From Escherichia phage ime09: DNA of 64,000 bases. Of this stretch, positions 1 to 63,220 are shown one piece after another (within the stretch, counting starts at the first letter, position 1; the number at the start of each line of letters is the position of its first letter). The notes below the pieces were generated by a model. That model ran no database searches, was not told where the DNA came from, and saw only the letters and a list, made by a program, of their open reading frames with translations. The translations under genes were made by a program, and so were the position numbers. The stretch is from sequence record NC_019503.1; one strand, given 5' to 3'.

Positions 1-11
1 AATTTTCCTTA

Positions 12-2189
12 TTAGGCCGCAAGGGCCTTCATAGTTTTAGCGATTTGGGAGACTTCATCATCACTTAAAGAGCTGCGATAACCGATGAAGTCGGAAACAA
101 TACGGAATTTCTTGGTAAACTCAACGACCATTTTATCACTGTTTTTTGAAGCATTATTTGACAATACATCAAAAAGATTAGTTACTGTCCAGATGTCATG
201 ACCGATGGTACCTTTTCCACCGTTGAAATATATGCCCTGTAATGAACTAACCATATTACCAAGGCGAGTATATTCTTCAGAAACTTCATCTACACTGAAG
301 TACTTCATCATAAAATCTAGTTCAGGATACTTGATAATTTTATCAATATATCGTTTAGCTGAACTTGAATAACCTACATACTTATCATAATCTACAGCAT
401 CAAAAGCATCTACATATAAATCACGCAGAGTTTCAAAAATACATTGGCACTGACCAAGTTCTTTTACCTTTTTCTGTAAAAGCGGACGAATAACATAAAA
501 TTCATTAATGCCAATAAGATTAGCCATACGAGTCAAAATACTCGTAGATGGATGACAAAGCGATGTAGTACCATCCATAGAGAAAATATCAGAACGATGC
601 ATGTATGCTACATAACCAGTAATTTCATCTGCTTCTGATGTGAGTGTAAACAGTTCCTCTTTTTCCCAGCGCCCGTCTTTAATTTCAAACTTAAACGCAG
701 TAGCAGCTTTAGGACGAGGAGCTTTACTTTTAACTGCCTTCGGAATATAACTTTTAACTAAAGCTTCAATTTCTGACAAATAATGAATGTTAACTTCATC
801 ACTTTCAAACATTGCCATAATATCAGGAAGTAAATCAATCTGCGATTCTACTTCCGGATTAATAAACAGAAGACGCTCATTATGATGAATATTCAAAGTG
901 TTATTAAATTCACTATCATCTAACGCATGCGCTAATCCACGGACAATATTAACACGATTTTTAATATTATCAATAACGATATTAATTTTTGTTGTATTAA
1001 TACCGAACAGACGATAACTTGATGCAATGGCTGAAGTTTCATGACTTTGCTTAATGCGTTTCAGTCGAGGGTCAAGATTTACTTCATACACAACTCCTGC
1101 ATTGCATAGTTTACTATCAGGTTCAAACATGCTTTGCATCTTTTTATATGACAGATTTTTAGTCGTAAATTTGACTGAATTACTAATCATATAATCTCGA
1201 GCAGAATATCCCATCTTCATCAATTCACGGTATGTATGACGAGGAGATGTAGATTCTTTAAATCGTTTTACATCTTCATTGAATGCCTTCTCACTAAGCT
1301 CTTTAACACGCTCAATAATATTTTTACGGGTACGATCATCTAGTGAAAGAGCTTCGCGTGATGGAGCAATATCAAGTGAACCCATTGGAAATTTAATGTA
1401 ATTCACTTCATTGCGGATGCTTAACCAGTTACGGTCTCTAATAACACCATCGATAGGATAAACAATACCGCCATAGATAGCATACAATCCACCACGATCT
1501 GGCCAATATCTTTCTGGATTTACGCCATAATAGTCATCAAAATCCGGAAAATAATCAATTTCGCGGTCAAGACCATTAATGATAGCCAAATCTTTGAATG
1601 GTCGCATGATATAAGAAACTTCATAAGCAAAGTTTCTAAAGTCTTTTTCTTCAACTGGAACTACGATTTCAATACCAGTTTTATCATCTGGACCCATTTC
1701 TTTTACGAACGTAGGTTTAATCTGCGGACCATCGCCATCCATATAAGCTACATAACCACGAATTTCACCTTTATGATATGAAGTAATACTAAACGTATCA
1801 GTATAACTAAATGGAGATTTAGAACCTAAACCAAATCCGCCAATGAAATCGTTAGATTCAGCCTTAGATGAACTAAAGTATGAATTATACAACCCAGGAG
1901 AATTATCATCACCCTGAATATCAAAATCGCTCATACCTGGACCAAAATCACGACAAACAAATCGCGGATCTAATCGTCCTGGAACTTGAATGATAAATTT
2001 TTCAGGATTTCCATTGAGAGCATGGGCATCAATCATGTTGGTAATCAATTCACGGACTACTGCGCGAATCTTGTTTGTATACAAATCAGATGATAGAATT
2101 TTAAATACTTTAGGATTTGCTGCGATGCTAAATGCCTTTGATTTAGAACCATTGCCAAGAATTGTTTCTTTTTCAGTGGTGATAATCAT
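12..2189 (-). CDS. rIIA: rIIA protein (T4 rIIA-like)
   Basis: 725-aa ORF; matches remembered T4 rIIA length and N-terminal sequence; GHKL-ATPase-like N-terminal region. Confidence 0.9.
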
Positions 2190-58791: not shown

Positions 58792-59253
58792 TCATTGAGT
58801 TTTAATTACTGCTTTAGAAGCCTTTCCTGGTAAACGACGACTGTTGATAATTGCCATCCTACACTGAAGTGACGGGTCTTTGAACTTCGCATTAGGTTTA
58901 CAAACTGTAAATCCAAGCCAAAGATTTCCATCTGTGATTTCTAAACGCCCAGGACGATATTCAACCCCATCAATAAAATCCTCGTCAATGTCAGGACGCG
59001 GAGGCATACTCAGGAATTCATTAACTTCTAAAACATGGTCTTTTATTTTATGGAATAATTCAAAAACATATGTCTCATCAATCTCCCGCTGAATTGCACG
59101 ATCAAGAAGATGCTGAGAATATTTTAGATGAAACGATGAGACTCCTGCTGCTTTTGATGCCTCACGAATCTCATTGTTAATTTGACGAAACTCCGACTCA
59201 AAGTGACGACGGAGCTTATTTCGACGGATAAAAACTTCTGTGTTGATAGTCAT
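58792..59253 (-). CDS. regB: RegB endoribonuclease
   Basis: 153 aa; matches remembered T4 RegB. Confidence 0.85.
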   Translation of the reverse strand: MTINTEVFIRRNKLRRHFESEFRQINNEIREASKAAGVSSFHLKYSQHLLDRAIQREIDETYVFELFHKIKDHVLEVNEFLSMPPRPDIDEDFIDGVEYRPGRLEITDGNLWLGFTVCKPNAKFKDPSLQCRMAIINSRRLPGKASKAVIKTQ

Positions 59254-59280
59254 GTTATTCTCCTCTTAACTGATAGAAAA

Positions 59281-59310
59281 ATTATACCACAGTCAAGAGG
59301 AAAAGTAAAC
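59281..59310 (-). promoter_or_regulatory. early promoter GTTTAC-N18-TATAAT
   Basis: upstream of regB. Confidence 0.55.
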
Positions 59311-59312
59311 AG

Positions 59313-59633
59313 TTATTCTTTAAATCTAATCAATTTATTCATAGACTTTGAAACTTCTGCACGAACCTCATGTAGGTTTTTGAGCTGTTCAAGACGTTGC
59401 TCATAGTAAGCAATTTCATCTTCTTCGAGACAGTCCTGTGAATCTTCTTTAAGATATCGTGCATAGTCCTGGAAAGCTTTACGGACTACTTCCTGGAAGT
59501 CATCAAGACTTTGAATTTTCTTAGGAGCAGCAGATACACGACGAGGGGCAGTATAATACTCATAACCAAACCCTGCGCTTAATTGAGCCATTAATATTTT
59601 TCCTCTGGTTGAAACACTGCGCGACAAGCCCAC
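59313..59633 (-). CDS. hypothetical protein (106 aa)
   Basis: co-directional ORF in vs-region. Confidence 0.45.
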
Positions 59634-59893
59634 ATACTGGCTTCTTTGAGCTTCGTTTTAGCAATAGTTAACTGATCGATGCTTTCAGCATAATTCTTCG
59701 CGAATTCATAGTCTTCGCAATTATTTAGCACTTCCCAGAATTCGTCATATAAAGCATCAAAAATAAGTCCTAAACGAACTTCAGCATCTTTGATAGCATT
59801 CACTTTACCGATTTTCTCTTCAGTATGTGGCTTATAACCCTTAATATCTTCAATCATATTTGACTTCCTCACCAGTACATAAATCATATTCAA
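59591..59893 (-). CDS. hypothetical protein (100 aa)
   Basis: co-directional ORF. Confidence 0.45.
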
Positions 59894-60071
59894 CTAAACG
59901 AATAGGTTCATGAATGCCATATCCTTGAACAGAAATTTCTGTCGTAGGATAAATTCCATCAATATCACCCATGGTCCACGCTTCATTAAATTGCTGTTCG
60001 CCTGAATTACTAAACCATTCTGCGAAAGCATTTAACACATCTTTAGAACCTTCAATAATTATCTTTGCCAT
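59850..60071 (-). CDS. hypothetical protein (73 aa)
   Basis: co-directional ORF. Confidence 0.45.
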   Translation of the reverse strand: MAKIIIEGSKDVLNAFAEWFSNSGEQQFNEAWTMGDIDGIYPTTEISVQGYGIHEPIRLVEYDLCTGEEVKYD

Positions 60072-60433
60072 TACAAGCTCTCAGTAAAGGTACGAGCGAT
60101 AACGTCGCGCTGCTGTTCCGGAGTCAGAGAGTTAAAGCGAACTGCATAACCGGATACACGGATGGTCAGCTGCGGATATTTTTCCGGATGCTTAACTGCA
60201 TCTTCCAGAGTTTCACGACGCAGAACGTTAACGTTCAGGTGTTGACCACCTTCAATTTTAACCGCAGGTTGTGGTTCAATTTCAATTTCACGGGTATGCA
60301 AACCGTAGAAAATTTCTGGGTCTACAAAAGAGTCCTCTTTAAAAGTTTTAGAGACAATAATTCGTGCTTGAATACCATCTTCAAAATAAATAGTACCTTT
60401 ATGTGTGCCTTCAAGAATTTGATATGCTTTCAT
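60071..60433 (-). CDS. autonomous glycyl radical cofactor, GrcA/YfiD-like
   Basis: 120 aa; C-terminal about 60 aa match E. coli GrcA including RVSGYAV glycyl radical motif. Confidence 0.85.
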
Positions 60434-60440
60434 ATAAACC

Positions 60441-60770
60441 TCAATTAGAAAATAAATTTATCCAAGATTGCTCTTTAATTAAAAATGGCTCAGAATCATA
60501 TGCCATTAAACTTTGGGTGATTAGTCCTTTAAAAGGTCCATCAATAAATTCCATGGTAAAATATGGAATTTTATTCATTAATCTTGCATTAGGAGCAGTA
60601 CACAAAACTCTGCATCCTTTGAATACACCTTTTTGTAATTTATATTGCTTAGGATAAAATTCGCTCAAGACGTTATTATTTGCCAAAATTTCAAAATGAT
60701 TCACCAATTTATTTTTAATAGTTTTTGGCGAAAAATAAAGATATTCGAAAAGCTGTGTGTCTGTCATCAT
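60441..60770 (-). CDS. hypothetical protein (about 109 aa)
   Basis: track ORF 60441..60821 trimmed to internal Met to abut upstream gene. Confidence 0.45.
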
Positions 60771-61354
60771 TGCATTCCGATTACGAAAAACTGCGGACGA
60801 GTAATACCACCAATGCAACATTTAATATTACAGCAGTAGTGTACAGTGTCAATATGGACGCTATAAATCTTATCCATATCAGGAGATTTAACAGGCTCAT
60901 CAATTATATACAAAATTCGCGAAAGCGATAAACCTCTGAACTTGCTTCCTTTATTACCGATAAAACTACGGACAGAATCGGTAAATAAGCGGAATCGAAT
61001 ATCATCGCCAGAATAACGAGAAAATTCTTTTTTAATGTGGCCCGCAGAAATTTTAGCGTAAGCTGAAGTATTAGAAAGAACAATAACTGTTCCACCATCA
61101 TACAGCCAATTAGCAGCAAAGTTAGTCACAGCAGTTGATTTACCGGATTGTCTGCCACCATCTAATCGAAGTGTGCAATACTGCTTGAGTAAGTCTTCAA
61201 ATGGTGGGATATAATCGTTTTTACAAATTTCTTCTACTCTAGCATCAGAATGGTGTGTAAAAGCATTCATCAGGGATAGATAAGGACCAGTTAAAAATGT
61301 TCTCATTTTGTTATCTCTAAATTTGGGCCATTCCATGGCGCATGAATTTTCCAT
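60767..61354 (-). CDS. P-loop NTPase-like protein
   Basis: GGRQSGKST Walker A-like motif; start may be internal Met MEWPKF. Confidence 0.5.
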   Translation of the reverse strand: MENSCAMEWPKFRDNKMRTFLTGPYLSLMNAFTHHSDARVEEICKNDYIPPFEDLLKQYCTLRLDGGRQSGKSTAVTNFAANWLYDGGTVIVLSNTSAYAKISAGHIKKEFSRYSGDDIRFRLFTDSVRSFIGNKGSKFRGLSLSRILYIIDEPVKSPDMDKIYSVHIDTVHYCCNIKCCIGGITRPQFFVIGMQ

Positions 61355-61459
61355 TTCTGTATTTACCCATTACCGCACTTGGGCTCGACCTTATTACAGG
61401 TTGGCGGGAATCCCTCATAGAATCATGAGGTCCAGCTTGTTCCCATATTTCTTATTTGC

Positions 61460-61933
61460 TTATTTGAATGATTTGACGTACTGAACAGAACCTTTGCTAT
61501 TCACGAAAGCGATTTTACCATTTTTGTTATACATGGTAGCAGTACGCTGATAGCCATAAGTTTGCTTACCAGATTGATAACCAACTAATGCGAAATTATC
61601 TTCGCCCATTTTATTCTGCTTAGCGCGAATGCGTTCATGGCCGTGTGCCATAAGAACCTTAGCATCACCAGTTGAAATTGATCTACGAGTTTTTTCATCT
61701 TCAACTGTATTAACAAAGTCGTCAAATGAATCAAATTTAGCATGGGATTTATTATACAGTTTTCCATCTACTGCATAATTATATCCCTGTACATCCATCT
61801 CAACTTCTGTACCATCATCCAATACAGCAGTGATTTTTTGACCTTTTTTAAATTTCAAAAGATCAGTAAAAGATTCAGCAATAATTTGAGAATTAATAGC
61901 TGCTTCAGTGATAAATTCTTGATATGTTTTCAT
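61460..61933 (-). CDS. internal protein (head-packaged) with capsid targeting sequence
   Basis: 157 aa starting MKTYQEFITEA, the T4 IP/Alt CTS consensus. Confidence 0.65.
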   Translation of the reverse strand: MKTYQEFITEAAINSQIIAESFTDLLKFKKGQKITAVLDDGTEVEMDVQGYNYAVDGKLYNKSHAKFDSFDDFVNTVEDEKTRRSISTGDAKVLMAHGHERIRAKQNKMGEDNFALVGYQSGKQTYGYQRTATMYNKNGKIAFVNSKGSVQYVKSFK

Positions 61934-61942
61934 ATGTTTCCT

Positions 61943-62359
61943 TTAAATGTAAATATTTTTGCCGTAATACTTGTACCAGTGTGGCTTCATTAAAATTTTT
62001 TCATCGAGTCGTTGTTGACTCAATTTAATAGCTGATTTGCATGGATTATAATCATTTTTCCATTCTGCTGGAATATCGCTGATGTCAGGAACTTCAGTAT
62101 CTTTTATACTAAACTCACGTTTTAAGCATTCCGTTATAATGTCTGATTGACGCTTTCGCAAAAATTCTAACTTATCGTAAAAGAACGTAACATGACCAGA
62201 GCCTAAAATAAACTCGGAAGATATTTTAAAATCTTTAACCCGCTTACCATTTGCCACATGTTTACGAACTATACCAAAAACACGCGGCAATTCACGATAC
62301 TCAGCCATAAGATGTTGGTCGGTCAGTTCAGAAACAAGTGTTAAATTGATGCGAGTCAT
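61943..62359 (-). CDS. denV: endonuclease V (pyrimidine dimer glycosylase) DenV
   Basis: track ORF 61943..62371; [12 protein letters not shown]... matches T4 DenV. Confidence 0.9.

Positions 62360-62417: not shown

Positions 62418-63220
<803 letters not shown>

Follow-up and report, generated by a model that had tools for sequence, protein, structure and literature searches.

A 3' tract of the phage gene vs.6 with near-identity to Escherichia coli grcA and its probable origin by recombination with the host

The phage gene vs.6, which codes for a small glycyl radical protein related to GrcA of E. coli, very probably goes back to an old phage-resident grcA homolog whose 3' 185 nucleotides were overwritten by recombination with host grcA, at least twice, with retention of the type of function known for the T4 protein Y06I. 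The gene was analysed in a 64,000-nt stretch of DNA from Escherichia phage ime09 (NC_019503.1), referred to as the window. A preceding sequence-only reading of the window had described a GrcA-like gene at 60071-60433 as a mosaic with a host-derived 3' portion.

The vs.6 gene and its product

The gene corresponds exactly to a single entry of the ORF list at the coordinates given by the sequence-only reading; it starts with ATG and codes for 120 amino acids including a Gly_radical domain (Table 1). Over the whole gene, nucleotide identity to T4 vs.6 is 97.8%, 118 of 120 residues of the two proteins are identical, and the gene order matches. This degree of DNA and protein identity identifies the ORF as the ortholog of T4 vs.6, the gene for Y06I, which is among the few ORFs kept across T4-like genomes (PMC1524935). 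Y06I had previously been named as a T4 counterpart with a spare-part role. The role is indeed published (see below), and the relationship is that of an actual ortholog rather than of a mere counterpart. In T4 the gene is likewise flanked by vs.7 and vs.5 near regB, and it contains the same tract with 183 of 185 nucleotides shared with E. coli grcA. The proteins are distinguished by conservative differences in the N-terminal half (T47A, A57T) and the genes by a few synonymous ones; no functional difference is expected.

A megablast search with positions 59500..61000 retrieved 823 phage records, the best of which (Tequatrovirus) were 96-97% identical; with vs.6 itself, matches extended to roughly 1,500 phage genomes. 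Ten neighbouring proteins, i.e. the products of the nine adjacent genes and of the lysozyme-like ORF 62696..63184, were scanned against PHROG. The matches comprised thymidine kinase (tk), a phosphatase-like protein, the RegB endoribonuclease, vs.x ORFs, an internal virion protein and lysozyme, and the locus can be assigned on this basis to the tk-vs-regB region of a T4-like phage. A homing endonuclease that might stimulate conversion was not found among these ten proteins, and a scan of 59000..62000 for promoters and terminators gave the same counts as shuffled sequences. An ORF on the opposite strand (60065..60448, plus strand, 127 aa, starting with TTG) was dismissed as an antisense shadow of vs.6, given that each of the window's 47 ORFs with 150 aa or more lies on the minus strand. 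The stop codon of vs.6 overlaps the ATG of the vs.5-like gene (TAATG), and this overlap is also the 3' limit of homology to the host.

Table 1. Features of the vs.6 locus in the window.
Feature	Position	Strand	Basis
vs.6/Y06I ortholog, predicted autonomous glycyl radical cofactor (GrcA-like), 120 aa	60071..60433	-	ORF list, T4 identity, profiles
Tract of very probable host origin (codons 60-120 and stop codon), coding for the glycyl radical domain with RVSGYAV	60071..60255	-	blastn, GC
Perfect 175-nt identity run with E. coli grcA	60081..60255	-	pairwise alignment
Putatively old, AT-rich 5' half of the phage lineage, codons 1-59	60256..60433	-	composition, BLASTP
Shine-Dalgarno-like GAGG, 6 nt 5' of the vs.6 ATG, context ...TAATTGAGGTTTATATG	60440..60443	-	read from sequence
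Downstream gene, vs.5-like, 73 aa	59850..60071	-	ORF list, phrog_1986

In profile searches, residues 61-101 of the protein matched Pfam Gly_radical (PF01228) with 66.8 bits (cutoff 22.2), and the RVSGYAV loop was present. The NCBIfam equivalog model for GrcA (TIGR04365), which was built for bacterial proteins, yielded 152.9 bits, i.e. less than its cutoff of 170, over profile positions 25-126 only, compared to 233.9 bits for E. coli GrcA; the shortfall is caused by the diverged N-terminal half. Among solved structures, YfiD (PDB 6OWR) was matched from residue 22 to the end (E=8.5e-42). The protein stands alone and lacks the catalytic barrel of pyruvate formate-lyase (PFL); it matches PflB exclusively at its last 60-65 residues (TIGR01255 positions 680-744; 1H16 residues 697-759).

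The sequence-only reading had characterized the 5' half as AT-rich with a phage-specific N-terminus. Its low GC content was corroborated, but phage-specific it is not. BLASTP detected 36% identity over 39 aa to the N-terminal region of GrcA (E=1e-5), and this half is conserved across the genera of Tevenvirinae. It is thus a diverged GrcA homolog and not an unrelated sequence, and for this reason the underlying event is better understood as partial overwriting of an old phage grcA than as a fusion. The same two-part architecture was encountered in Mosigvirus, Jiaodavirus, Karamvirus, Slopekvirus, Pseudotevenvirus, Krischvirus, T5-like and jumbo phages. Compared to GrcA/YfiD, with which the window protein shares the Gly_radical domain and the RVSGYAV motif, its N-terminal region of 59 residues is only distantly homologous and it is 7 residues shorter. 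The window gene is part of an early-region operon of the phage whereas GrcA/YfiD is encoded in the ung-grcA locus of the host.

The 3' tract in the window and in other phages

The GC content of the gene is 0.486 in the tract at 60071..60255 as compared to 0.337 in the remaining 5' part (60256..60433) and 0.346 in the whole window. When all 185-nt windows of the 64 kb were inspected, values of at least 0.486 occurred in one cluster only (0.05% of windows) which coincides with the tract, and the associated GC step is the largest such feature of the window. GC3 changes from 0.19 in the 5' part to 0.44 in the tract. The latter is rich in codons untypical of the phage (five CTG, three CCG and three AAC, and also CAG) while the phage's own genes prefer TTA/CTT, CCT/CCA, AAT and CAA. 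A phage-based codon index, for which 61-codon windows from the ORFs of the 64-kb window served as reference, was 0.572 for the tract (lowest 3.3%) and 0.736, a typical value, for the N-terminal half. The earlier assertion of a GC-rich stretch with E. coli-like codons at about 60075..60260 was thus confirmed, and the step within the gene is seen with all three measures (GC, GC3 and codon index).

In blastn searches the tract (nucleotides 179..363 of the phage gene) matched the 3' end of E. coli grcA at 183 of 185 positions (98.9%) in each of 5,426 complete genomes (5,426/5,426). Both mismatches are synonymous and fall within the last three codons (60080, G vs A; 60076, T vs C). The breakpoints are sharp: the perfect run of 175 nt is bordered on the 5' side of codon 60 by a region with approximately 39% identity to E. 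coli grcA (ungapped), and no similarity to E. coli was detectable after the vs.6 stop codon by pairwise alignment. When the whole 64-kb window was compared with the same 5,426 E. coli genomes, the tract was the sole megablast match.

Among E. coli phages, tracts vary mostly in the last three codons, which read GAG AGC TTG, GAA AGT TTG, GAG AGT CTG or GAG AGT CTA as opposed to GAA AGC CTG in E. coli grcA. The last 10 nt of the tract (including 60076..60080) coincide with the ribosome-binding region and the ATG of the overlapping vs.5-like gene. This variation may reflect either the edge of the tract or translational coupling.

Protein conservation does not explain the DNA identity of the tract to E. 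coli. The C-terminal 61 residues of the phage protein and of E. coli GrcA are identical except for one (60/61; I60 vs V), and in this respect the near-identity to GrcA/YfiD including RVSGYAV had been correctly recognized. In a comparison panel of grcA genes from 80 bacterial species, however, 78 other species share 56-60 of the 61 residues, yet just 140-169 of the 185 nucleotides, i.e. far fewer than the 183 shared with E. coli. Nucleotide identity to the tract was 181/185 for a cryptic Escherichia, 169 for Citrobacter amalonaticus and 154 for Salmonella. Likewise, dS over the tract block was 0.98 between E. coli and Salmonella, 0.58 between E. coli and Klebsiella, and 0.39 between E. coli and Citrobacter, compared to 0.045 for the window and E. 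coli.

For comparisons among phages a 153-nt segment within the tract, the tract interior, was used. Identity to E. coli was 153/153 in the window and in T4, and 147-151/153 in Mosigvirus isolates. In the phage collection, 416 records showed an identity of 99% or more to the E. coli interior, with 225 others at 95-99%, two at 90-95% and 77 at 80-90%; the distribution is bimodal, without ageing intermediates. Between the window and Mosigvirus contigs, identity was 63-74% in the flanks, 90% in the vs.6 5' half and 100% in the tract interior. Based on the divergence of the N-terminal halves (pS 0.26-0.29, dS 0.31-0.36), about 10 interior differences would be expected between the window and Mosigvirus; the numbers observed were 0, 2, 2 and 6 (P(0) ~5e-5). 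Tequatrovirus and Mosigvirus show fixed differences from each other just outside the tract, a few bases 5' of its start, and inside it within the final 10 nt. The interior has none and displays a star-like pattern. From these data we infer that the tract in E. coli phages is either very recent or recurrently refreshed, and the star-like pattern together with the lack of fixed interior differences would favour continuing conversion within this group, which the private variants of LF82-41 (below) do not corroborate. The sequence-only reading had suggested recent exchange, in line with the 153/153 identity. In both genera the tract edges lie at the limits of host homology, as expected if the host was the donor.

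Mosigvirus LF82-41 carries private tract variants that are absent from all E. coli genomes searched (5,426/5,426). Its best E. coli match is the common allele (95.7%). Donation from a different E. coli allele was considered and rejected since no genome gave a better match than the common allele, and the comparison thus yielded no evidence of separate donations by different E. coli alleles.

Klebsiella phages of the genus Jiaodavirus contain a tract of Klebsiella type. Its GC content is 0.55 compared to 0.36 upstream, and it matches Klebsiella grcA at 144-148 of 153 interior positions (tract identity 95-98%) and E. coli grcA at 131-134 (about 87%). The Klebsiella references consisted of K. variicola-type and metagenomic Klebsiella alleles, to the exclusion of K. 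pneumoniae sensu stricto. With Klebsiella grcA as query, 108 phage records aligned over 168-173 nt with 95-99% identity, beginning with the codon that also opens the E. coli tract, while E. coli phages were found at 80-90%. Jiaodavirus and Klebsiella share the residue signature LLDAVEH, E. coli phages and E. coli the signature LEDAVKH. In a neighbour-joining tree of the interior, E. coli phages grouped with Escherichia in 178 of 200 bootstraps, and Jiaodavirus was nested within the Klebsiella alleles in 107 of 200. The tract phylogeny thus appears to follow the host and not the phage, with moderate support for the Klebsiella branch. The Klebsiella case is less clean than that of E. coli given the identity of 95-97%, the bootstrap value of 53% and the proximity of Enterobacter alleles, which are just 4-6 nt further from Jiaodavirus than those of Klebsiella. 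Taken together, the alignments support two or more independent replacements of phage by host DNA at this position, with strong evidence in the case of E. coli and moderate evidence in that of Klebsiella. Repeated exchange, the other variant put forward by the sequence-only reading, agrees with this Klebsiella-type tract at the same position.

The copies in Karamvirus, Slopekvirus, Pseudotevenvirus, Krischvirus, T5-like and jumbo phages code for a C-terminus that is almost the same, yet their identity to any host is limited to 112-133 of 153 positions, and the GC step is small or absent. They are best interpreted as the old, diverged and unconverted state. A Salmonella-type tract was not found in phages (Salmonella grcA vs all phages, best match 83.8%). 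No raised identity was observed between Cronobacter sakazakii grcA and Cronobacter phage leE (Pseudotevenvirus), or between Enterobacter grcA and Karamvirus. In T5 (AY543070.1, locus 320..688) and Salmonella phage atrejo, the diverged GrcA-like gene (T5.056) directly follows tRNA genes; the 3' half of the T5-like genes matches any host at 112-118 of 153 positions, which speaks against recent host exchange. The tract of Salmonella phage PSE-D1 (ON550260.1) is of Klebsiella type, with 96.5% identity to Klebsiella grcA and 87.6% to the type found in E. coli, and Tequatrovirus isolates from Yersinia and Citrobacter have an E. coli-type tract. The tract may reflect the usual host of a lineage rather than the host of isolation.

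Several database records deviated from the general picture. (i) In Klebsiella phage KPV15 (NC_055715.1, locus 401..762) the vs.6 homolog comprises 362 instead of 363 nt and is frameshifted, with two short CDS annotated; it is either a pseudogene or the result of a sequencing error. (ii) Escherichia phage vB_Eco_Some (OZ034686.1, locus 321..701) has a 79-nt tandem duplication inside the host-identical tract (CATCCGTGTATCC...CGTACCTTC twice) which frameshifts the vs.6 C-terminus, and either the gene is disrupted or the assembly is in error. (iii) The record of Klebsiella phage vB_Kpn_AM_K4 (PP355766.1, Straboviridae) is 288,685 bp long, with grcA (locus 401..763) in a different neighbourhood that has tRNA-Thr and tRNA-Leu downstream and no vs.4/vs.5-like gene; it may be a concatenated or chimeric assembly. 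(iv) In T4 strain GT7 (KJ477686.1, locus 1501..1863) the vs.6 ORF is intact but unannotated, as are vs.4 and vs.5. (v) ON470599.1 (Escherichia phage vB_EcoM-569R5, partial genome, Peduoviridae) includes two genes of the host chromosome, a full-length pflB and, after it, pflA; it probably represents a prophage deposited together with flanking host DNA, or else a contamination. (vi) NZ_JBQPOM010000029.1, a 253-kb contig of 'Vagococcus sp. WN89Y' labelled as a Firmicute, carries a grcA of enterobacterial type (91% aa identity to E. coli); this genome is likely mislabelled or contaminated.

Origin of the tract

According to our proposal, gene conversion, i.e. homologous or homeologous recombination with the chromosomal grcA of the host, would have overwritten the 3' 185 nt of the phage gene. 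The near-invariant domain would preserve enough nucleotide similarity for homeologous recombination. The 5' edge at codon 60 (V/I-E-G-G-Q-H) would mark the first place where phage and host DNA are similar enough to recombine, and the 3' edge would be set by the stop codon, beyond which there is no homology. Once converted, the tract would be a perfect substrate for further conversion. As it encodes the same protein as before, conversion would be selectively near-neutral and persist; nothing would select against a tract that is synonymous with what it replaced. The donor would have been E. coli for Tequatrovirus and Mosigvirus, and Klebsiella for Jiaodavirus. T-even phages possess a very active homologous recombination, and fragments of host DNA are present early in infection. 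The early degradation of host dC-DNA by T4 should limit the substrate, but the fragments can be recombinogenic. Host-to-phage conversion is deduced here from sequence comparison.

Identity by itself gives no direction, and E. coli might conversely have taken the 3' half of its grcA from a phage. The two halves of E. coli grcA, however, hardly differ in GC content (0.47 vs 0.49) and are equally diverged from Escherichia sp., Citrobacter, Salmonella and Klebsiella; the gene resides in a conserved ung-grcA synteny and follows host taxonomy, and the composition of the block is that of the host and not of the phage. Since E. coli grcA has no internal step and the phage gene carries one, the comparison indicates that the DNA moved from host to phage, and transfer in the opposite direction can practically be discounted. 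This also substantiates the earlier view of a mosaic gene that arose by host-derived transfer, for which E. coli-specific synonymous sites, host composition and a non-mosaic E. coli grcA speak. Contamination with host DNA or chimeric phage assembly is a legitimate concern insofar as some phage records do hold host DNA, e.g. ON470599 with its pflB-pflA genes. Yet the same in-frame junction is present in more than 600 independently sequenced phage genomes, T4 included, and the reading frame is unbroken and ends in a stop codon that overlaps the ATG of the next phage gene, making an artefact exceedingly improbable.

Alternatively, the acquisition might be ancient and identity have been held by strong selection on synonymous sites, related for instance to optimised translation by host-preferred codons or to a function at the RNA level. 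The use of E. coli major codons (CTG, CCG, AAC, CGT) in the tract would fit such a scenario, as would the high expression of grcA in E. coli. On the other hand, the dS values of 0.39-0.98 among hosts reveal free divergence of the very same block, and RB16, Krischvirus, T5 and A4 (infecting E. coli) as well as Slopekvirus (Klebsiella) keep the protein with only 103-130 of 153 nucleotides matching. Moreover, optimal codons would not mimic allele-specific choices of E. coli vs Citrobacter. We therefore consider selection on synonymous sites very unlikely. More can be said for one transfer into one lineage of E. coli phages followed by spread from phage to phage between Tequatrovirus and Mosigvirus, with no further input from the host: both genera have the same 5' junction and co-infect E. 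coli, the 90% identity of their vs.6 5' halves against 63-74% in the flanks suggests some phage-phage exchange, and the private variants of LF82-41 match no E. coli allele. To account for the fixed genus differences at both tract edges, both crossovers would then have had to occur exactly at the limits of host homology, which form natural boundaries solely for DNA donated by the host, and the Klebsiella-type tract in Jiaodavirus would be left unexplained. Hence, a single transfer appears unlikely. All four alternatives are less well supported than overwriting of the phage gene by repeated recombination with the host.

Function, relation to known systems and significance

PFL-AE activates both YfiD of E. 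coli and Y06I of T4, and the two proteins restore the activity of oxygen-cleaved pyruvate formate-lyase (Knappe and co-workers; Wagner et al. 2001, cited in PMC8683613; PMC13450708). According to these articles they are the only validated spare-part proteins (PMC8683613; PMC13450708). By orthology, the window protein is predicted to do the same as Y06I when infection takes place at low oxygen. Gly-98 in its RVSGYAV loop would be converted to a glycyl radical by the host activase PflA, and the phage protein of about 14 kDa would replace the C-terminal glycyl radical domain cleaved off host PflB by oxygen. Production of acetyl-CoA and formate would thereby be kept running. The anaerobic ribonucleotide reductase of T4 uses formate, a product of PFL, as reductant, and formate supply to this enzyme is a possible reason for the phage to carry the gene. 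In Asteriusvirus-type jumbo phages (345-355 kb; Escherichia phage A4, locus 1..1177, and IMG/VR contigs) the GrcA-like gene adjoins nrdD upstream and an nrdG-like gene downstream. This adjacency fits the idea of formate as reductant and hints at a functional link of PFL-derived formate with anaerobic dNTP synthesis of the phage.

GrcA-like proteins of T5 (T5.056), Karamvirus, Slopekvirus, Pseudotevenvirus, Krischvirus and Asteriusvirus share with the window protein a variable N-terminus and the conserved RVSGYAVRF domain, and differ in the absence of a host-like 3' half described above. With respect to the type of event, the closest precedent is psbA/psbD of cyanophages, where intragenic recombination between host and phage copies is documented for T4-like phages by Sullivan et al. 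(2006, PMC1484495). Common to both systems are a host-derived metabolic gene in T4-like phages and recombination signatures inside the gene (PMC1484495). Unlike psbA/psbD, vs.6 is found with an enterobacterial host and in a virulent, hmC-containing T-even phage that degrades host DNA. It shows a single block with edges set by homology and an interior 100% identical to the host; the type of the block varies with the host genus (E. coli vs Klebsiella), and exchange was observed in one direction only, from host to phage.

The gene and its function are thus already known from T4 vs.6/Y06I, and the type of event is known from psbA/psbD. The literature found on vs.6, Y06I and grcA consists of functional work and contains no report of the tract; the T4 genome review (PMC150520) was outside this search, and a prior mention is possible. 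The E. coli tract in vs.6 and its Klebsiella counterpart represent a modest evolutionary observation that is probably unreported. Nothing new is added with regard to function, and the value of the finding is evolutionary.

It remains striking that a lytic phage contains 175 nt of letter-perfect host DNA and that sister phages have a Klebsiella version at the same spot. This amounts to clean evidence from nature for recombination between T-even phages and homologous DNA of the host chromosome, and suggests that highly conserved protein domains can serve as landing pads for exchange between host and phage. For annotation, it is a warning that host matches at the nucleotide level inside phage genomes are not always contamination. 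A further notion, that conversion of vs.6 by host DNA is frequent and ongoing in nature even in hmC-containing T-even phages which degrade host DNA, is tentative and somewhat doubtful. If true, the 3' half of vs.6 would be a natural recorder, or host barcode, of the species and even the allele of the host in which a phage recently replicated, and the tract could be used as a field measure of recombination rates between phages and hosts. The tract may also mark the recent host of a phage lineage.
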